This document shows positions 21,502 to 50,769 of a DNA stretch of 64,000 nt, piece after piece. The stretch covers positions 449-64,448 of the forward strand of contig CAZUJU010000015.1 of NCBI GenBank assembly GCA_964620675.1, in the 5' to 3' direction. Position numbers and translations under genes: made by a program. The notes below the pieces were generated by a model. It worked only from the letters and a program-made list of their open reading frames with translations. It was not told where the DNA came from and searched no databases. The DNA comes from an uncultured Thiotrichales bacterium. Lineage in GTDB: Bacteria > Pseudomonadota > Gammaproteobacteria > UWMA-0217. How positions within the stretch are numbered: position 1 is the stretch's first letter; each line of letters starts with the position of its first letter.

Positions 21502-22248
21502 TCAATCCGACCAGTCGCCGAGACCGGCACGGATGCGCGCGATCGCCTGGCCGTGAATTTGGCTGACGCGCGATTCACTCACCCCGAGTACCGCGCCGAT
21601 TTCCTTCAAGTTCATGTCCTCGGTGTAATACAGCGCCATGACCAGCTTTTCGCGCTCCGGCAGGCGCTCGATCGCGTCGGCGACCACGCGATGAACCTCT
21701 TCGCTTTGTAACAGCTGCTGGGGTGTCGCGTCGGTCGAGGCGATGTCGAAAACGCGCGAGTTGCCTTCGTCATCGCCCTCGTCCTGTTCGTCCATCGACA
21801 ACAGTTGCGCGAACGACGCTTCCCGCACGATTTTTTGATACTCCGCCAGCGGCAGTTTCATTTCAGCGGCGATTTCACCTTCGCTGGCGCGGCGGTGCAG
21901 GCGCGCCTCGACGCGTCTTACGGCGTCGCTGATCTCGCGCAGATTGCGACTGACCGAGCGCGGGGTCCAATCGGAACCGCGGACTTCGTCGAGCATCGCG
22001 CCGCGAACCCGAATCCCGGCGTAGGTCTCAAAGCTTGCGCCTTGGGTGGGATCGAACTGGCGTACTGCTTCCATCAATCCGATCATCCCGGCCTGAATCA
22101 GGTCCGCGACTTGAACATTGTCGGGCAGGCGCCCGGACAAATGGTGCGCGATGCGCTTTACCAGCGGCGCGTGCCGCTCGATCATGTCCTCCAGCGGGGT
22201 CTGCTCGACCTGACCCCAAGGGGTTTTCTGGCTTACGGCGTATGTCAT
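21502..22248 (-). CDS. fliA: Flagellar sigma factor sigma28
   Basis: DLIQAGMIGL, YAGIRVRGAMLDE.R..DW and LGVSESRVSQIH motifs. Confidence 0.96.
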   Translation of the reverse strand: MTYAVSQKTPWGQVEQTPLEDMIERHAPLVKRIAHHLSGRLPDNVQVADLIQAGMIGLMEAVRQFDPTQGASFETYAGIRVRGAMLDEVRGSDWTPRSVSRNLREISDAVRRVEARLHRRASEGEIAAEMKLPLAEYQKIVREASFAQLLSMDEQDEGDDEGNSRVFDIASTDATPQQLLQSEEVHRVVADAIERLPEREKLVMALYYTEDMNLKEIGAVLGVSESRVSQIHGQAIARIRAGLGDWSD

Positions 22249-32012: not shown

Positions 32013-34751
32013 CTACGCCGCCTGTTGCGTCAGCCGCCGGCGCGGGGCTGCGTTCGTCGACTGCAAATCGCCACCGCGTGGGCTCCCGAGACTGAAATGG
32101 CCGATCAGTTCGTGCAGGCGGACCGCTTGGGTATCGAGCGACTGCGCTGCGGCCGCCGCCTGCTCGACCATCGCGGCATTTTGCTGCGTCAGCCCGTCGA
32201 GTTGGTCGAGGGTCTGATCGATCCTCAACATTCCCTCGGCCTGCTCGCTCGATGCGCGCGCGACACCCGCCATCAGCTCGGCGATCTCGCGAATCGCGCG
32301 CGTGGTCTGATGCATCGAGGCGTGGGTCGAGGTGACGAGCTCATGTCCGTTTGCGATCTCGGTGACTGATGCTTGGACCAACGCATCGATCTCCTTGGCC
32401 GCCTCCCGCGAACGCCCGGCGAGGTTGCGGACCTCGGTCGCAACCACCGCGAAGCCCTTGCCGTGTTCCCCGGCCCGCGCCGCCTCGACCGCGGCGTTGA
32501 TGGCCAGGATATTGGTCTGGAACGCGATGCCTTCGATCACCTCGACGATGCGGGAGATCTGTTCGGAGCGTTGACCGACGGCCGACATGTTGTCGACCAG
32601 TCGGGCAACCACCTCGGCCGCGGACTCGGTCGATTCCCGCGCTTGCAGCGTGATACGGCAGGCCTGTTGCGCGTGCTCGGCGTTGCGTTGCACGGTTTCG
32701 GTCAAGGCTCGCGTGCGGGTGGCGGTCTGTTCGATCGAGCGCGATTGCGCTTCGGTGCGAGTGGCGAGGTCGCCGTTGCCGACCGCGATCTCGCGCGCGG
32801 CGGTCAGGATCGATTCGCTCACCGCCGAGATCGTGGTCACCAGCTCGCCGAGTTCGCGCAGCGTGGTATTCGCGTGCGTCATCAGCTCGCCCAGGGTGCC
32901 GTCGAACTGACCCTCGATACGATGGCCGAGATCGCCACGCGCCAGCGCCTTCAGGGTCGCTTCCAGGGTTCCCAGACCGCTCTGGGTGGTTTCGAGCAAT
33001 TGGTTGAGACCGGTGCCGAGCGTGGCGAAAAAGGCGTGATTTTCGATCGTGCCAAGCCGCTGTGCGAAATCGCCACGCGCGGCGGCAGTCACGATTCGGG
33101 TGATATCCTGTTCCAGTCGCAGCTCGTCGGTGCGCTCAGACCATTCCAGTGCGGCGCCAATCGGCTTGCTGTCGTCTTGCGTGATTGGGGTGGTGACCAC
33201 ATCCAGCGTGCGCGACCCCAAGGTGAGGGTGACCTTGCTGGGCGCGCGGGTAGCCGAATTCAAGGACTGGCCGGCATACCAGCGGTGGATCGACGTGCCC
33301 AACAAGCCCTCGGCGTTGAAGTCCGCTGCTTGCTGCCGGAGTTGCGGTGAGAGCGATTGCATCAGGCGTCGCAAGGCCCGATTCATGAACCTGATCGTCC
33401 CGGCTTCATCGATCATCATGACGTTCGCCGAGACGTTGTCGAGCGCCGTGACGACTTTCTGACTCTCCGCGGTCTGCCGGCGCGCCTCCGCAAGGTCGAA
33501 GCCGTGTTGGGTGTACAAGATCTTGAATGCATCAACCAATTCGCCGATTTCGTCGTTGCGTTGCTTGGCCACCGCGATACCAAAGTTGCCGCGGTGAATT
33601 TCACCCATGTGTTGGCGCACGGCGCGCAGCGGCCGCAGGACTTCCTTAAAGAACCGCCGCGTCGAAACCGCGATCAGGACCAACAGGCCGGAGAGCCCGA
33701 GTGCGATGGTGTTGCGCACCCAGGCGACGCGCGCGTTGGCTTCCCCGTAGGCTTGCGCGATCTGATGCATTTGCCGATCGACCTGCTCGCTCAGTAACGC
33801 CGCCGTTTGATCGATCAGGGCGACGACGCTGCGCGGGTCGTGCCCGTGCGCCGGCGTGGGTGCGTCCGACGCTCCGGCCGGATCGCGCACCGCCTCAGCG
33901 TAGACCCGGTCAAGTTCAGTCAGCATCTGCTCGGTTTCCTGAAAATTGGCGACGCTACCGTGGCTCGCGACAATGCCGCGATACGCGCTCCACTGGGCAT
34001 TGCCCATGGTTCGGATCGCCTCCAGTTCCTGCGTAGCTGTCGCGGGGGTAAGTAGGCCTTGATTCAGTTGGTAAAGCACCAGCGGCGCTTGGGCCAGATA
34101 CTGGTCGGTGGTGGTTTTAAGTAGCTTGATCGGGATGATGTTGGCGGTGAACACCGCCTCCAGGTCTGTGCGCGCTTGCTGGATTCCCACCAAACCGGCG
34201 CCACCGACGGCGGACAGCAGCAAGCCCATACTCAACGCAGCGATTGCGGCACGGGTGCGTAACGACTGTGGCAAGCGGCGTCGCAGCGCGAGCCACGGAC
34301 TGTTGCGCAAGGCGCGGCCTTCGACGATCACCCAGCGTCGTTCACCTTGGTTCAGGGAGCGATACACTTGCTCGGCCGCACGTACGTCGGCTGCGCGCGG
34401 TTTGGTCCGGACCGAGATGAAGCCGACGATCCGACCATCCTCATGGATCGGGCTGATGTTTGCCAAGACCCAGTAGTAATCGCCGTTCTTGCACAGATTC
34501 TTGACGATGCCGGTCCATGGCCGTCCGGCGCGGACGGTATCCCAAAGATCCTGAAAGGCGGCCTTGGGCATATCGGGGTGACGCACCAAGTTGTGCGGCC
34601 GTCCAATGAGTTCGGCTTCCGAGAATCCGCTGATCGCGACGAATTCGCGATTGACGTAGGTGATCTTGCCGCGGCTATCCGTGCGCGAAACGATAAATTC
34701 GCCTTCGTTGAGCAGGCGTTCCTTGCCGGTGGCAGTATGGGGGGGTGCCAT
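32013..34751 (-). CDS. Methyl-accepting chemotaxis protein: Aer-type PAS, TM, 4HB, TM, HAMP, Aer2-type PAS, HAMPs, MA domain
   Basis: [16 protein letters not shown] motif; two TM helices; NDEIGEL HAMP; [13 protein letters not shown]; [30 protein letters not shown]. Confidence 0.9.
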
Positions 34752-35014
34752 CAGTCGTGTCCTCTGTTGTGTGTGGTATGGATTTACTTCCAGATCGCGA
34801 AGCCGGCGCGAGCGATCCAGGGTCCTCGTCCTGGTGGCCGCGTCGGGTCGCCGGGTCGGTGGGGGCCGACCGCGTATGGTTGCATCCGTTGGGTCCCGAC
34901 GCGGCAAGTCGTCACGCGTTGGGGCGCGAGCGATCCACGGCAGCGACGCGGGACACGGATTCAAGTGATCGGGCGTGTGCTTAAGAAGCCTCCTGGTGTG
35001 ATTGGGTGATCCGT

Positions 35015-36472
35015 TCAGGCGAACAGGTCGATCCGCTCGCGCCCGCCGTGACGCCATGCCGCAGGCGTACCCAGTCGTTGGGCATCGTCATTTCCAGCCG
35101 TCTCGGCGGCGCCCGGCGTGCGCCACGGCGACTCGCGCTCGGCCGCGTGTTGACGCTGCGGATTCTGTTGCCCGGAAACGTCGACATCGACGCTGCCGAA
35201 GCCATTTTCGGCCAAAGTCTCACGCAGGCGTGGCAGGTGCTGTTCGAGGGTTTCGCGGGTTTGCGCGTGGTGTGCCAGAAACTGGATTTGCAGTTGATCC
35301 GTGCCGGTCATTGAGAGTTTGATCTGGATCGGACCGAGTTCCACCGGGTCGAGTTGAATCGTCGCGTGCTGCAGGCTGCGCTGCACCATCCAGTTGACTT
35401 GGGCCCCGAGTTGCGCGGGCGCGTCGGCGCGCTGTAACGCGAGGGTTGGCAGCGGCGCGGCGTGGGTCGATGTCGTTGCGCGTGGATTTGAAACGCTCGT
35501 GGCCGAGTCGGTGGGCGCCGCGTTGTCGGTCAGTACCGTCGTTGCGGTGGTCGTCGTAGCCCGTGTGGTGGTTGTTGCCTTGAGGCCGGGGAGTTTGCTC
35601 GCGTGGGCGATCTGAGCCTGCGCTGCAACGCTGCGTTTGCCAAAGGTTGGGCGCAGGGCTTCGGTCGGATTCTGCGCCGGCGCGACCGGCAGTGGTGTTG
35701 CAGGTATGCCGGCGTGGTCCGACGCGGCGGCTGAGGCCACGGGTGATGCGCTTGGCGTTAGGCCCACCGACGCCGGAATTGGATGGGCGAGGGGAGCCGC
35801 AGGGACCGATTTGGCCGGTTCGCTTGCGCTCGTCGGCGCGGCCGTTGCCGTTGCCGTCGCGGTCAGCGGCGAGGGGGTGCTCGTCAGCGGTCGGGCGCCG
35901 GTAGGCTGGTCGGTCTTGGCCGGGTCCGCGGCGGCGACTGTCGGTGTGGTGTTGCTCAGGCGTGAACGCGGCGCCGCAAGGGTGTCTGGCGACACGGCTG
36001 TGGCGGTCGGTAATTTGAGGCCCTGAGTAGTACCCAGCCAGTCGCGGTCGGCGGGATCTTGCGCGGTTGGTTGCGCGGGCGCGGCCGGGGATGGCGGCGC
36101 GCCCGGCGTCAGCGGGTTTGGCGCCGGCTGCGCCGAAGGTGCGCGGGTGGCCTGGTTTGCGTCGCCGAGTCCGCCCTCGGGGAGTTTGCCGCCAGTGACG
36201 CCCGCGGCAGTCGCCTGCAACAAATCGCTTGTGAACGGAGTTGAGTTGCCGTGGGTGTTGCCGGTGAACGGCGGGTTCGCTGTTTCCGCCGCGTCGGAAC
36301 CCTCGGCCGGCGGCGCGGTGGCGATACCTTGCGCCGGCGCCAGCAAGCCAGTCAGTAACGCGACGAACGGATCGCCGGGCGCGTTTTCCGGATCGGCGGC
36401 GTGGGGGGCAGTCGGCTTACCGATTGTCCCCGGTTTCGTGGCGACCGGCGCGATCGAGTTTGCTACATCCAT
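35015..36472 (-). CDS. fliK: Flagellar hook-length control protein FliK
   Basis: Ala/Pro/Thr-rich N-region; C-terminal [13 protein letters not shown]...LPRLRE. Confidence 0.9.
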
Positions 36473-46856: not shown

Positions 46857-48137
46857 TCACGACGACTTGAATCGTTGTGCAAGAAATGAACTGGTCTGGT
46901 TCAGTTTGGCGACCAGCGAGTCCATGGCGCCGAACTGTTTGCGCATGCGTGCCTCGACACTCACCATTCGTGCCTCGAAGCGCTCCATCTGTAAATCGAT
47001 CGATTTTTTGCGGTTGCCGAGGCCGTCGGTGCGAGTCTGGATGAAACCGTCACTTTGGGTGTAGCGCTCGAACGCGTCGGCGATCCGCTTCGCGAAGCCG
47101 TTGTCTTTGTCGGTGAAGAACGCGACCACATTGGCGAGGTTGTCCTTGATCTGATCATTGGCCTTGGTGGTGTTGACGCTCATCACGCCTTCCTTGCTAT
47201 AGGTCATGCCGAAGTCGATCGCGGACACGTTGGCGCCTGCCGCGTTGGTAAAGTTGCCGAACATCTGGCTACGCAGCGATGACTCGATCCCGACCAGCAT
47301 CCCCTCGCCTTTGAGGTCGTCCGTGCGCAGGCTCTTGATACGGTTGATCAAGGTGTTGTAAGCGCTGGTGAAGTCCTGCATCGATTTCGTCATCGCGCCG
47401 TTGTCGGCCGCGGAGGTGATTTCGGTGGTGCCTTTGCCGGTGAGGGTAAGGGTCAGCCCGTCGACGACGCCGGTGATCGTATTCGAGGCGCTGGTGACGC
47501 CAAAACCGTTGACGCTGAGTTCGGCATCCTTCGCTGGCTGCGATTCGGTGAACCCAAACCCTGCGGGGGCGGTGATCTCGTTCGCCAAGCCGGTATTCTT
47601 CGCTGTCAGCACGAGGTAGCTGCCGCCGGTCGCGTTGACGATGCTTGCGCTCATGCCGGTATTGCCACTGGCGTTATTGATCGCGTCGCGGAGCCCTTTC
47701 AGCGAATTGTTGCCGGCGTCGATGGTGATATCGAAGCTCGACGCGCCCGCGGTAAAGGTATGGGTGCCTTCGCCCACCGCCGTGTCGGCGTCGGTGTATG
47801 CCTGGGAGGCCATGCGGTGTGCCTGGGCGAGTTCCGTCACGACGACCGTGTGGTTTTCGGCGGCGGCGCCCGCGCTCGCGCTGACGGTTGCGACCTTCGC
47901 GTCGCTGGTCGAGACGGTGTACTTGGAAAACTGATCCTTGTCGCCAAGTTTTTTCGCCGCGGAGACCAAGTCCGAGATTGCCGTTTTCAATCGACCGTAG
48001 GCGCTGACCTGCACGTCGATCGTGCTTTTCTGTTTCTGTAGCTTGGTCAGCGGTTGGCGTTCGACCTGCATCAGGCCGGAGATCATCGAGTTGATGTCGA
48101 GGCCCGAACCGACGCCGGCCGCGGTTAAAGTTGGCAT
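46857..48137 (-). CDS. fliD: Flagellar filament cap protein FliD
   Basis: GVGSGLDINSMISGLM N-terminus; KQFGAMDSLVAKLN C-terminus. Confidence 0.95.
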   Translation of the reverse strand: MPTLTAAGVGSGLDINSMISGLMQVERQPLTKLQKQKSTIDVQVSAYGRLKTAISDLVSAAKKLGDKDQFSKYTVSTSDAKVATVSASAGAAAENHTVVVTELAQAHRMASQAYTDADTAVGEGTHTFTAGASSFDITIDAGNNSLKGLRDAINNASGNTGMSASIVNATGGSYLVLTAKNTGLANEITAPAGFGFTESQPAKDAELSVNGFGVTSASNTITGVVDGLTLTLTGKGTTEITSAADNGAMTKSMQDFTSAYNTLINRIKSLRTDDLKGEGMLVGIESSLRSQMFGNFTNAAGANVSAIDFGMTYSKEGVMSVNTTKANDQIKDNLANVVAFFTDKDNGFAKRIADAFERYTQSDGFIQTRTDGLGNRKKSIDLQMERFEARMVSVEARMRKQFGAMDSLVAKLNQTSSFLAQRFKSS

Positions 48138-48170
48138 GTGTCGCTCCTGAGTATTATTTTGGCTCGTATA

Positions 48171-48186
48171 TGCATGGTTCGTGCCC
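48171..48186 (-). promoter_or_regulatory. sigma54 promoter for fliD-fliS-fliT
   Basis: GGGCAC-GAACC-ATGCA on the minus strand, 33 nt upstream of the fliD ATG. Confidence 0.65.
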
Positions 48187-48194
48187 GTTCGGCG

Positions 48195-48572
48195 TCAGGT
48201 CAGGGTATCCAGCAATAGACCGAGCGGCGGTTCATCTTTTGGATTGCCCCCCTCCACAAAACGCTGTAAGGCGACGGCCTGTTCCGACGGAATCTGGCGC
48301 ACAACCTCGCCCGTCGCTTGATTGCGTACGACGATTACGCTGTCCTTGACGTCGGCATCGAACGAAAGCTCCATCGACCACGGCAAATCCACGGACAGTT
48401 GCCGGATCGACGCGGCAATCTTCTGCAGGTCCGGTGGCGGTTCGGTCTTTGCGCTCGCTCCGTGTTCCAACGGTTCCGATGGCGTGGCAGCAGGTGCCCC
48501 GCGCGGACTCGTAAAATGCGTATGCAACGCATCGGTGGCACTAATTTTAAGGTTCGGATCGGATGCTGTCAT
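48195..48572 (-). CDS. flaG: Flagellar protein FlaG
   Basis: TGEVVRQIPSE and GLLLD motifs; GGGGAG RBS. Confidence 0.88.
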   Translation of the reverse strand: MTASDPNLKISATDALHTHFTSPRGAPAATPSEPLEHGASAKTEPPPDLQKIAASIRQLSVDLPWSMELSFDADVKDSVIVVRNQATGEVVRQIPSEQAVALQRFVEGGNPKDEPPLGLLLDTLT

Positions 48573-48689
48573 GTTTGTGCTCTCCCCTGTCGGCCTGGGC
48601 CCGAGGTCGCGGAGCGATGGCTCACGCAAGGGCTTCGGCCGCTATTGTTTGGACCGCCCAAGGCCGTAAGTGCCGACACCGTCCGTCAG

Positions 48690-48876
48690 GAAAGATTCGG
48701 GGCCCGAGGCCCCGAATAAGGAGTGGACGATATTATTGTTATTATCAAGTGAGGGCTTCTAGTTACGTCGTTGGGTTATGCTTTCTCGCTTCCATCGATT
48801 TCCGCCTTACCTGGCAGCTGATCCTCGTTCCGTTTACTTCCCTGGGCGCCTTGCCTATGTGACCTTGCGTCCTCAC
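48690..48876 (-). ncRNA. Putative sigma28-dependent sRNA (GGA-rich, A-rich tract, anti-SD, terminator) in the flagellin slot
   Basis: Bounded by a sigma28 promoter and a 10-bp hairpin; six GGA motifs in about 82 nt; no convincing long ORF. Confidence 0.55.
48691..48717 (-). terminator. Intrinsic terminator-like hairpin
   Basis: ATTCGGGGCC-cga-GGCCCCGAAT (10-bp stem) followed on the minus strand by CTTT. Confidence 0.65.
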
Positions 48877-48881
48877 CCGGG

Positions 48882-48908
48882 TTATCGGTCGGCTCCGTCA
48901 GAGCTTTA
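48882..48908 (-). promoter_or_regulatory. sigma28 (FliA) promoter
   Basis: TAAA-N15-ACCGATAA on the minus strand (consensus TAAA-N15-GCCGATAA). Confidence 0.85.
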
Positions 48909-49324
48909 GCGGTGAACCGCCAATTTCGTCGCGCGAGTGCATCAACGGCATAAGTCCGGCCGCGAATGGTAAGGGCCGTGCTTTGGCGGGCGCGATTGGC
49001 AAGCTATTCAGGTCATCATCGCGTGTCGGCACGAAAGCTTCCCCGGGTCTCTCTTTGCTGGGGTGACTTTCCGTTACACCTTCGGAGTGGCCGGTTGTAT
49101 CAAATGAGGCGCGGCATGAACGAGGCGCCCATTCCTAGTCCGGGTGGCAGGGTGGGTTGGACCTGGATAAGCGGTCGCGAGTTCTGCGCTGTTGCGACGT
49201 TCGGAATTGAGACTAACGGCGTTTTCGGGATCTTGAGTCAGGGAGTTCGGGCGGGTCGGATCGACAAAGCAGCGCGGCAGGTTGCGTAGTGGTGCTTCCG
49301 AGCGCGGATCGCGCGGACGTACGC

Positions 49325-49352
49325 AAAAAAAAAGCCGTCCAGTGGGACGGCT
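49325..49352 (-). terminator. Rho-independent terminator
   Basis: AGCCGTCC-cact-GGACGGCT followed by a further 8 T on the minus strand. Confidence 0.88.
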
Positions 49353-49430
49353 AAATAACTCAGGAGGAGTCACATCCAATGAATGTACGGGTGTTATTTT
49401 AGGCCCTAACTATTTGTTTTTGGAATGTCC
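49325..49430 (-). ncRNA. Putative CRP-activated sRNA of about 105 nt with an anti-SD seed
   Basis: Strong terminator; AT-rich body; CTCCTCCTGAG just before the terminator; CRP site and -10 element upstream. Confidence 0.55.
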
Positions 49431-49464
49431 TGATCTATTAAATGCTACCGTTTATCGGAGTGCT

Positions 49465-49480
49465 TGTGAAATCGATCACA
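49465..49480. promoter_or_regulatory. CRP/Vfr binding site
   Basis: TGTGA-AATCGA-TCACA, an exact core consensus; centred about 42 bp from the start implied by the minus-strand TTTAAT -10 at 49442-49437. Confidence 0.75.
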
Positions 49481-49758
49481 GAATCCTGCCGAGTGGTCGC
49501 GAAACGCCTCACGGGGTCGCTGGAATGCGTGGCTTGAACGGCCGATTTCCATTCCCGCGGGGGATGGGGGCGATTACGTCGTCGCTACGCACTGGGGTAG
49601 ACTCGCACGCTTGCCGTGACGGCCGCGGGTCGGATGGGTTTATCGGTCGTTGGCCTCATGGGGGCGCGGATGCAGGTATCGCCCCGCTGCGGTAACCAAC
49701 CGACAGGTGCCTTGCGTCCGCTTGCGGCTCGCGCTTGCGATGGAGGATTCCAGCTCAG

Positions 49759-50769
49759 ATGCCCAGCGTTCGAATCGATCTCGTCATTCCCGGTGTGTTC
49801 GACCGCTGGTCGGAATGGCGCGGTGACTACACCGGCTTACCTGATTTCGCGCGGGTGGCCGGGTGGTGGGGCCGAGGTAAAGGTGCGGCGATCGCAGCCG
49901 TTGGCTACGAAGCGACGCTCTGGTCGCTGTTGCGCGCCCCGCTCGCGGGGGGCGAGGAATTGTCGGTGGCGCGCGCATTGAGCGGAATGAACGGAGCCAC
50001 GATATGCCGGGCTGATCCGGCCTATCTGCGCGCCGGCGTCTCGGATTTGATTGCGTACGGACTCGGATCAGCACCGCTCGACGCTGCGGAGCGCCAGGCC
50101 TGCGCCGATCGGGTCAACGCGCAACTCGGCGCACGCGGGTCGTTCCGGCTCGACGCCGCAGGCGGGGGTTATCTGGCGCTTCCCGACCCGCTGGCGTTGC
50201 GCACGGTGCCGCCCTCGCAGGCGTGGGGTCGCTCGGTGCGGCGTCACCTGCCGGAGGCGGTCGTAGGCGGCCGGTCGCTGCTTGCGCTGCTGAACGAGAT
50301 ACAAATGGCCTTGCACGGGGCCGATTTCAATCGGGCGCGCGAGCAGCGCGGCGCACCCCCTGCGAATACACTGTGGTTGTGGGGTTGCGGGACGCATCCG
50401 GCCCCGGCGCAGCATGACTACACCACGATCATCGCCGACGATGGCTTGGTGGCCGGTCTGGCGGAAGGCGCGACAATCCCGCTGGCGGACTGGTTGGCGC
50501 GACCGAATCTGCCTGGCGGTCACCTGTTGCTGGTGTGGGATGCGTTACTCACGCCAATCTGGAACGACGATCTGAATCAATGGCTCGAAACAATGCGGAT
50601 TTTTGAGACGCGGTGGCTACCGCTCTTGCGCCGACTCTTGGGTCGTGGCGCATGCGGCGAGCTGAGGATTCTGCCCTGCAATGGCGCGGTGTTTCGGCTT
50701 GGCCGTTGGGACCGCTGGTTGCGGTGGCGCGCGCCGACGACCCTGGCCGCGCTGAGTCAGCCGGAATGA
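49759..50769 (+). CDS. Conserved protein upstream of recJ (phosphoglycerate mutase-like domain)
   Basis: RADP, LLNEIQMALH..FN.AR..RG..PANTLWLWG motifs; GGAGGA RBS; stop overlaps the recJ start. Confidence 0.75.
   Translation: MPSVRIDLVIPGVFDRWSEWRGDYTGLPDFARVAGWWGRGKGAAIAAVGYEATLWSLLRAPLAGGEELSVARALSGMNGATICRADPAYLRAGVSDLIAYGLGSAPLDAAERQACADRVNAQLGARGSFRLDAAGGGYLALPDPLALRTVPPSQAWGRSVRRHLPEAVVGGRSLLALLNEIQMALHGADFNRAREQRGAPPANTLWLWGCGTHPAPAQHDYTTIIADDGLVAGLAEGATIPLADWLARPNLPGGHLLLVWDALLTPIWNDDLNQWLETMRIFETRWLPLLRRLLGRGACGELRILPCNGAVFRLGRWDRWLRWRAPTTLAALSQPE

Follow-up and report, generated by a model that had tools for sequence, protein, structure and literature searches.

Organization of the flaG-proximal unit

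The window analyzed here is a stretch of 64,000 nucleotides (nt) from the assembly of an uncultured Thiotrichales bacterium (G000; 3.55 Mb, 155 contigs, 98.65% complete), and it carries a Pseudomonas/Vibrio-type flagellar cluster in which the place just upstream of flaG is occupied by a short minus-strand unit (48690-48908). The unit runs from a promoter of the sigma28 (FliA) type to a terminator-like hairpin about 187 nt further on, and another 122 nt separate the hairpin from the flaG start codon. A first-pass annotation, made from the letters of the sequence, had described this promoter, this hairpin and the absence of a flagellin gene between the promoter and flaG, and all three are confirmed; the six GGA motifs, the AUAAUAACAAUAAUA tract, the pairing strands and the 37-codon open reading frame (ORF) that it listed are also present where it placed them. 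Beyond the hairpin the gene order is flaG, fliD, fliS, fliT, fleQ and a second sigma54 activator with a receiver domain (fleR-like), after which the cluster continues from fliF to fliR, with a gene for a methyl-accepting chemotaxis protein in between, and on to flhB, flhA, flhF, fleN and fliA. Upstream of the promoter lie about 850 nt of non-coding DNA, then a plus-strand ORF that has no Pfam match, and then recJ. The features of the unit and its immediate neighbors, all on the minus strand, are as follows.

48882-48908, minus strand: sigma28 (FliA)-type promoter TAAAG-N15-(A)CCGATAA, read from the sequence, with the motif at the same place in the related genomes G001 and G002
48866-48881, minus strand: transcript start CCCGGGUGAGGACGCA, of the type of the family's fliC leaders, by comparison with the fliC leaders of relatives
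48822-48865, minus strand: purine-rich, U-poor 5' stretch with most of the GGA motifs, poorly conserved, from identity and shuffles
48802-48817, minus strand: small conserved hairpin CUGCC-AGGUAA-GGCGG, in three of three species and kept in the centroid fold
48747-48758, minus strand: conserved AAGCCCUC(AC) block, able to pair with the 5' UGAGG; AAGCCCUC is invariant in three of three species
48731-48745, minus strand: A-rich tract AUAAUAACAAUAAUA with (AAN)4, conserved in the genus and common to fliC 3' untranslated regions (3'UTRs) and the elements of genus g2
48689-48717, minus strand: 10-bp GC hairpin with a weak U tail, a candidate leaky intrinsic terminator, from folding and conservation
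48573-48688, minus strand: spacer to flaG with the Shine-Dalgarno sequence GGGGAG and no recognizable promoter
48195-48572, minus strand: flaG, 125 amino acids, ATG at 48572, by Pfam FlaG match
48170-48185, minus strand: sigma54-type promoter GGGCACGAACCATGCA between flaG and fliD, agreeing with the consensus at 10 of 12 positions
48876-48763, minus strand: 37-codon GTG ORF, from the ORF list

Within the transcript (all positions on the minus strand), the six GGA motifs lie at 48872, 48841, 48831, 48824, 48803 and 48793, and the two strands that had been proposed to close a 5' domain are GGGTGAGG at 48878-48871 and CCTCACTT at 48754-48747. The A-rich tract reads ATAATAACAATAATA at 48745-48731, and its (AAN)4 core, AAUAACAAUAAU at 48743-48732, is unpaired in both the minimum free energy and the centroid folds. 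The segment CCACTCCTT (48726-48718), in which the first-pass annotation saw an anti-Shine-Dalgarno sequence, is followed by the hairpin ATTCGGGGCC-TCG-GGCCCCGAAT (48717-48695), for which folding gives -18 kcal/mol and a z-score of -3.46 against shuffled sequences.

The sigma28-type promoter

The sigma28 consensus has TAAA at -35 and GCCGATAA at -10, with a gap of 15 nt, and the promoter of the unit agrees with it throughout (TAAA at 48908-48905, a 15-nt gap and the -10 box ACCGATAA at 48889-48882, minus strand). When both strands of G000 were scanned for the loose form TAAAG-N14-17-CCGATA[AT], seven sites were found in the 3.55 Mb, where base composition predicts about 0.9; the exact form TAAAG-N15-CCGATAA is seen in five of them, the promoter of the unit included. 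One exact-form site stands 47 nt before flgM, a classical sigma28 target. The gene assigned as fliA, from its position and domains and without a FliA-specific model, lies at 21502-22248 in the window and encodes a sigma-70 r2/r3/r4 protein that closes the flhA-flhF-fleN cluster. The promoter of the unit would be expected to fire with FliA.

Exact-form promoters are also present at G000:C18:24823-24960 and G000:C50:10058-10125, both standing before ORFs. The C18 leader is A-rich just before the ribosome-binding site and contains the (AAN)4 run CAACAAUAACAAAAG; the C50 leader is likewise A-rich before the ribosome-binding site, with a shorter run, CAACAAGAAAGG.

Conservation within the genus

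The comparison set is the order, here a single family, with 14 species genomes in five genera (g1 to g5). All three species of genus g1 (G000, G001 and G002) were used, so that comparisons of the element rest on n = 3 sequences; a search of public genomes with FliD brought no further relatives, its only match being a contig already in the set as G001. FlaG of G000 is 71% identical to the G001 copy and 59% identical to the G002 copy, and the corresponding values for FliD are 84% and 65%.

In all three species the unit is the immediate upstream neighbor of flaG, and the genes beyond it differ: G000 has the recJ side, G001 has pirin, and G002 has unknown ORFs together with an MFS transporter. Every copy has the promoter with equal spacing, the start (G/A)UGAGG, the hairpin CYGCC-AGGYAM-GGCGG, AAGCCCUC, the A-rich tract and the GC hairpin. 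Identity between species is 0.65-0.85 for CCCUC plus the AAN tract, 0.79-0.89 for the GC hairpin and 0.68-0.77 for the small hairpin, and it falls to 45-53% over the 5' block 48881-48822, which includes the transcript start. As a neutral yardstick we took the 4-fold degenerate sites of fliD and fliS in all species pairs of the genus; these are 0.43-0.54 identical in every pair and hence saturated. Because the conserved blocks are 65-89% identical against saturated synonymous sites, the 3' two-thirds of the unit are judged to be under purifying selection, and the GGA-rich 5' third is not visibly so.

In the small hairpin, a change from U to C on one side in G002 turns a G-U pair into a G-C pair. 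The GAGG/CCUC pairs are invariant in all three species, and a core of 4-5 bp of the proposed closing pairing is kept. The supposed anti-Shine-Dalgarno segment CCACUCCUU, by comparison, is not conserved, and reads CCUAGAC-UU and CCACAC--U in the other two species. Tracts of at least four AAN repeats number only 68 in the G000 assembly; three of the 68, the one in the element included, are then followed by a terminator-like hairpin, and two lie within 200 nt downstream of a sigma28-type promoter.

Rfam, which the first-pass annotation had put forward as a check, gave no match at gathering scores in the whole window and none at E ≤ 5 over 48500-49800. Across the g1 and g2 loci it returned only a weak SorX-like match of 20.6 bits, at L004 1518-1584 on the minus strand, which lies inside the G001 element (L004 1501-1644).

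Relation to flagellin transcription units

That the unit stands in the slot of fliC, as the first-pass annotation held, is borne out by the other genera: fliC, in one to three genes, lies immediately upstream of flaG or fliD in nine of nine other family genomes with both genes on the locus (the slot could not be assessed in G003 and G013). In all six of the g3, g4 and g5 genomes examined (G004, G005, G006, G008, G010 and G012), the fliC next to flaG or fliD carries a 3'UTR of 170-250 nt, the last part of which consists of an (AAN)n tract and, after a spacer of about 10-25 nt, a CCGGGG...CCCCGG hairpin. The 3'UTR of G012 aligns with the G000 element over about 35 nt around AAUAACAAUAAUA...UUAU(C/U)CGGGG. 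The likeness extends to the other end of the unit, as fliC leaders in the family open with CCGATAACCCCCnTGAA or GTGAGG. When compared with the promoter and leader of the G002 fliC gene, the G002 copy of the element shares 25 of 27 nt and the G001 copy 24 of 26; the G000 copy is more diverged and retains the -10 box, CCC and UGAGG. Both the leader start and the tail of the element are therefore found with intact fliC genes of relatives, and this combination of a fliC-type leader start and a fliC-type tail in the fliC slot indicates that the unit is a flagellin transcription unit that has lost its ORF, with a fliC-type promoter and leader start joined to a fliC-type 3'UTR.

A collapse of flagellin repeats during assembly, which the first-pass annotation had considered, is excluded by the read coverage, since a single contig from the run that probably gave rise to the genome covers 48075-49373 at even depth and without joints. 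Searches by tblastn with six flagellins against the three elements for a coding remnant yielded nothing above noise (best E 0.02-0.2, the database being three short sequences). Among the sister species, G002 retains an intact fliC on the contig of the unit, 22 kb upstream, and G001 has flagellin genes on another contig.

Two further observations concern flagellin genes in these species. An isolated piece on G002:C19 (L023 9894-10016, minus strand), about 1.6 kb downstream of the intact fliC, resembles the last 41 residues of flagellin at 46% identity and is a decayed second flagellin copy. On G001:C7 (L032 1450-2259), a PIN-domain ORF lies between two flagellin genes and is followed by a CAAUAACAACAG tract and the hairpin UUUCGGGGCCUUCGGGCCCCGAUUUUUUU, resembling the terminator of the element.

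A probable free-standing relative in genus g2

A covariance model of the g1 element, built without the promoter (R1), found one and the same intergenic element as its best match in three g2 genomes, G007 (E 2.5e-4), G011 (0.055) and G003 (0.11). This element is about 165 nt long, has a sigma28-type promoter (TAAAT-N15-CCGATGA), two AAN tracts and a good terminator, and is present and highly conserved in all four g2 genomes (G007:C1:9059-9261, that is L045 1501-1703, and L046, L047 and L048). ACANGGA and CCAGGGACCGGCACGUAGCCUU are conserved blocks within it, and Rfam returned no match for it. Its surroundings are housekeeping genes, with a CLC channel gene or argC on one side and GNAT-UDG-leuA on the other; since the element faces a convergent gene, it cannot be a leader. 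It looks like a bona fide small RNA (sRNA) gene related to the g1 element.

In the reciprocal search, the model of the g2 element (R2) had the g1 element as its sole match at E ≤ 1 in each of G000, G001 and G002 (E 0.16, 0.022 and 0.105), and it also matched fliC 3'UTRs in G005, G004 (two) and G008. The predicted g2 structure closes a 5' GAGGC onto GCCUU just before the A-rich tract, in the manner of GAGG/CCUC in g1. Common descent of the two elements is likely, given that the matches coincide in location and that the promoter, which lies outside the R1 model, is of the same type in both.

Transcription of flaG

What the first-pass annotation missed is that the sigma28-type promoter is, by our searches, the only recognizable one for flaG. 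Between the hairpin and flaG no sigma54-type site with at least 7 of 12 consensus positions occurs in G000 or G001, and the candidates in G002 are all weak; a single sigma70-like match in the vicinity (48572-48544) begins at the flaG start codon and, lying inside flaG, cannot drive it. The fliD gene, in comparison, has sigma54-type sites that agree with the consensus at 11 of 12 positions in each of the other two species (G001, L006 ~9110; G002, L007 ~5339). The layout is thus a promoter, a terminator-like hairpin and a co-oriented flaG without a recognizable promoter of its own. Because no other promoter for flaG can be recognized, the sigma28-type promoter very probably serves flaG in G000, and the hairpin would then have to be leaky. 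In G004 a Pfam-confirmed flaG begins 22 nt after the hairpin of fliC, from which read-through into flaG would be ancestral. In g5, where flaG is missing from the slot, a better terminator closes the module, beyond which fliD has a clear sigma54 promoter.

Interpretation and alternatives

The reading that we prefer, at a probability of about 0.5, is that a single sigma28 unit yields both a terminated, trans-acting RNA of about 185 nt and a read-through leader of flaG. The unit would be one of the late, FliA-dependent class with two outputs: most transcripts would stop at the hairpin to give the ~185-nt RNA, and the remainder would pass the weak U tail to become flaG mRNA. In the short RNA, the A-rich tract and the 3' hairpin may form an Hfq-type handle of the kind found in class II sRNAs such as MgrR. 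The repeated ARN/AAN motif does lie in a region predicted to be single-stranded and is conserved in the genus, where the A-rich tract beside the hairpin ranks as the best-conserved feature of the unit; tracts of this type recur in the related elements, and hfq is present in G000 (contig C28). The Hfq module of the first-pass annotation is accordingly retained as to its tract, which fits such a handle, with binding by Hfq a prediction on a par with partial termination and action in trans. In the ~185-nt RNA one would then see the version, at this locus, of a sigma28-timed RNA module that extends across the family and is carried as the 3'UTR of the last fliC in three sister genera and as a free-standing sigma28 gene in a fourth, and the shell would have been kept under selection in all three g1 species since the coding part was lost from the slot.

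Several results weigh against this reading. The hairpin has a short tail (CUUUCC) and was not flagged by a simple terminator scan; with so weak a tail, termination may be minor and the RNA mainly a leader of flaG. Taken one by one, the cross-model matches between g1 and g2 are weak (E 0.02-0.16); what the elements share is of low complexity, and the matches could depend for the most part on the AAN tract plus a GC hairpin. The structured 5' domain of the first-pass annotation also fares poorly, in that the whole RNA folds no more stably than shuffled sequences do (z -0.40) and the closing helix has no convincing compensatory change among the three sequences, with an unfavorable covariation term (+2.23); compensatory changes support neither the g1 nor the g2 helix. 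What stands of its organized interval is the conservation of promoter and hairpin in all three species. A crude RNAduplex scan of the element against the starts of flaG, fliD, fliS, fliT and fleQ in the three species gave no outlier (background fractions 0.21-0.99), a result of little weight because the scan ignores intramolecular structure and several windows lay off the true start codons. Finally, fliC, which was to be sought elsewhere in the genome (Flagellin_N; Flagellin_C above threshold), flgB-L (Flg_bb_rod) and csrA had no match in the G000 assembly, and these genes are either on unbinned contigs or lost.

As a separate observation on the flagellar genes of G000, flgA, flgM and flgN are present on another contig (G000:C47:24968-26571, L035). 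The position that flgB and the following genes hold in relatives is taken in G000 by a phage-tail-like cluster (sheath, Pvc16, AAA), through loss or a binning gap.

The element might instead act purely in cis, the sigma28-type promoter being simply the flaG promoter and the 310-nt leader with its hairpin setting the level of flaG by attenuation or through mRNA stability. We regard this as a possibility of some substance that nevertheless falls well short of even odds. It draws on the lack of another recognizable flaG promoter in G000 and G001 where fliD has its sigma54-type site, on the weak U tail of the hairpin and on the G004 arrangement, and it is helped by the observation that, judged by eye, U tails are poorer where a promoterless flaG follows (G000-G002 and the first fliC of G004) than in the g2 elements or in the g5 hairpins that precede a sigma54 promoter. 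A promoter and attenuator, however, have no need of the conserved AAN tract, small hairpin and AAGCCCUC block. Moreover, the related g2 element has no co-oriented gene downstream, and the module is kept in g5, with a strong terminator and a separate sigma54 promoter, where read-through is not needed. An inert scar of a fliC deletion, retained by chance, would share the same origin, which is well supported; the lack of a coding remnant by tblastn with six flagellins fits a clean loss, and decay of a flagellin copy has a parallel in the C-terminal fragment elsewhere in G002. The first-pass annotation, which listed a scar among its alternatives, was in this respect right about the origin. Yet blocks of the unit are 65-89% identical across species in which synonymous sites are saturated, and the promoter motif and its spacing are kept in three of three, so that an inert remnant seems very unlikely and the unit is better regarded as a shell under selection.

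The first-pass annotation itself had favored a FliA-driven sponge for CsrA/RsmA, with multiple GGA sites coupled to an Hfq/base-pairing module, and this interpretation is only partly supported. Six GGA motifs in about 85 nt of G000 are unusual for the genome, as only 0.44% of 115-nt windows have at least six, but this excess over the genome reflects the purine-rich, U-poor composition: against dinucleotide-preserving shuffles the counts are as expected in all three species (P 0.29, 0.84 and 0.50; in G000, 6 against 4.7 +/- 1.5). One GGA position is kept in three of three species (AUGGAAG, AGGGAAA, CAGGGAC), and the g2 element keeps ACA(G/U/A)GGA and CCAGGGA in four of four (the second being CCAUGGA in G003), whereas the GGA-rich part as a whole is 45-53% identical between the g1 species, which is approximately neutral. 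The loop of the conserved hairpin is AGGYAM and not GGA, no GGA falls in the loop of any hairpin retained in the centroid fold, and no CsrB/Rsm family matches in Rfam, even at E ≤ 5. All 13 other family genomes have csrA, often in two to four copies, and flagellin mRNA itself titrates CsrA in Campylobacter jejuni (PMC4894983); in the 98.65% complete G000 assembly, however, neither csrA nor fliW was found. A sponge is therefore unlikely. A still fainter prospect is that the unit is the mRNA of a small protein, with the 37-codon GTG ORF (48876-48763) translated, possibly without a leader. The ORF does open at the same (G/A)TG in the three species (37, 40 and 44 codons, with ATG in G001), but in G002 the conserved hairpin is read in another phase (0 versus 1), the peptides are barely alike and have no Shine-Dalgarno sequence, and open frames are to be expected from composition in a sequence with 5-12% U. 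We rejected it on frame and composition as highly improbable.

A variant of the preferred reading concerns the A-rich tract in its own right. In fliC leaders, tracts of this type also stand immediately ahead of the ribosome-binding site; in G007 a 15-nt run of the free-standing element recurs unchanged in a fliC leader, and an (AAN)4 tract is present in the leader of one further transcript from a sigma28-type promoter in G000. One might speculate that transcripts with this common tract compete for a common reader, which could be the distal face of Hfq or the ribosome standby machinery. The element would then belong to a lineage-wide, FliA-timed module that copies the (AAN)n of flagellin leaders and serves as a decoy, tuning flagellin translation once the late genes fire, and that takes three interchangeable forms, namely a flagellin 3'UTR, a free-standing sigma28 gene and, in g1, a flagellin gene emptied of its coding sequence. 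We consider this idea doubtful; if true, it would provide a natural case of an sRNA gene born from an mRNA through loss of the ORF.

Other features of the region

A second small unit lies upstream of the element at 49322-49470 on the minus strand. It has a sigma70-like promoter (TTCACA-17-TAGCAT, 49470-49442), the CU-rich sequence ACUCCUCCUGAG and, at 49352-49324, a strong terminator in which nine U come after AGCCGUCC-CACU-GGACGGCU. A sub-threshold Rfam match to RF02278 (Betaproteobacteria toxic sRNA) reaches 27 bits against a gathering score of 50, with E 0.0056, and blastn found no copy of the unit in G001 or G002. Positions 49323-49373 are matched by another contig of the source metagenome, which diverges beyond. 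The plus-strand ORF that adjoins recJ has 344 codons (49735-50769) and a good Shine-Dalgarno sequence, GGAGGA, before an ATG near 49758, and has no Pfam match. The methyl-accepting chemotaxis protein of the cluster has 1014 amino acids with PAS and HAMP domains and is encoded at 32013-35057 on the minus strand, between fliK and fliM.

Comparison with known systems

In their logic, the nearest known systems are small RNAs derived from flagellin 3'UTRs: FliX, from the fliC 3'UTR of Escherichia coli (PMC10578931), and FlaX, from the flaA 3'UTR of Vibrio cholerae (PMC11879080). In sister genera the counterpart of the conserved 3' half of the element is the long 3'UTR of the fliC in the slot; expression of the element would follow a flagellin promoter, and its end is a flagellin terminator hairpin. 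Its length of about 185 nt is similar to the ~265 nt of FlaX. For a relationship in sequence, Rfam as a whole was scanned and gave no match. In none of G000, G001 and G002 does flagellin coding sequence precede the element, although the homologous module does sit in fliC 3'UTRs in the six g3-g5 genomes examined. With the promoter fused almost directly to the tail, no processing by RNase E would be needed. In addition, FlaX works with ProQ, whereas the A-rich tract of the element points to Hfq, and the transcript of the element probably also feeds flaG.

A promoter of the sigma28 type directly before a short non-coding transcript is a feature that the element has in common with UhpU and MotR of E. 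coli and with CJnc170/FlmR of C. jejuni, of which CJnc170 is FliA-dependent (PMC10578931; PMC11187230), although for the element FliA dependence is deduced solely from the motif. In the UhpU study (PMC12704781), a 3'UTR sRNA later gained a FliA promoter, which arose inside an intact coding gene; the element, in contrast, would have become independent through loss of the coding part, or, in g2, at a separate locus. Like the class II Hfq sRNAs MgrR and ChiX, the element has an ARN/AAN run, predicted to be single-stranded, upstream of a terminator-like hairpin, and the Hfq distal face binds repeated ARN/AAN motifs, which are found in MgrR (PMC6239178); the U tail of the element (CUUUCC) is short. 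With CsrB, RsmY and RsmZ it shares several GGA motifs in a short non-coding RNA, but here their number is explained by composition, most are unconserved and lie outside hairpin loops, and the promoter is of the sigma28 type and not of the GacA/UvrY type.

FliA-driven sRNAs and flagellin-3'UTR sRNAs are thus already known, and what sets the unit apart is the route, in which the ORF was lost and promoter and tail were fused. Judged from comparison of the genomes, one family would hold the module in three states: within a 3'UTR, as a gene standing alone, and as a gene emptied of its ORF. Both kinds of sRNA are recent finds in enterics, Vibrio and Campylobacter, and the present lineage is an unrelated one of uncultured sulfur- and nitrogen-cycling proteobacteria in which the module seems always to be under sigma28 and to be reached by three genetic routes. 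Should the short RNA prove not to be real, the locus would serve as a warning that an interval from promoter to terminator can be the shell of a lost gene in the service of the next one. If it is real, it would offer a compact test case for telling a trans-acting RNA from a leader with a leaky terminator, and the family would represent a natural experiment on how regulators derived from 3'UTRs become independent genes.

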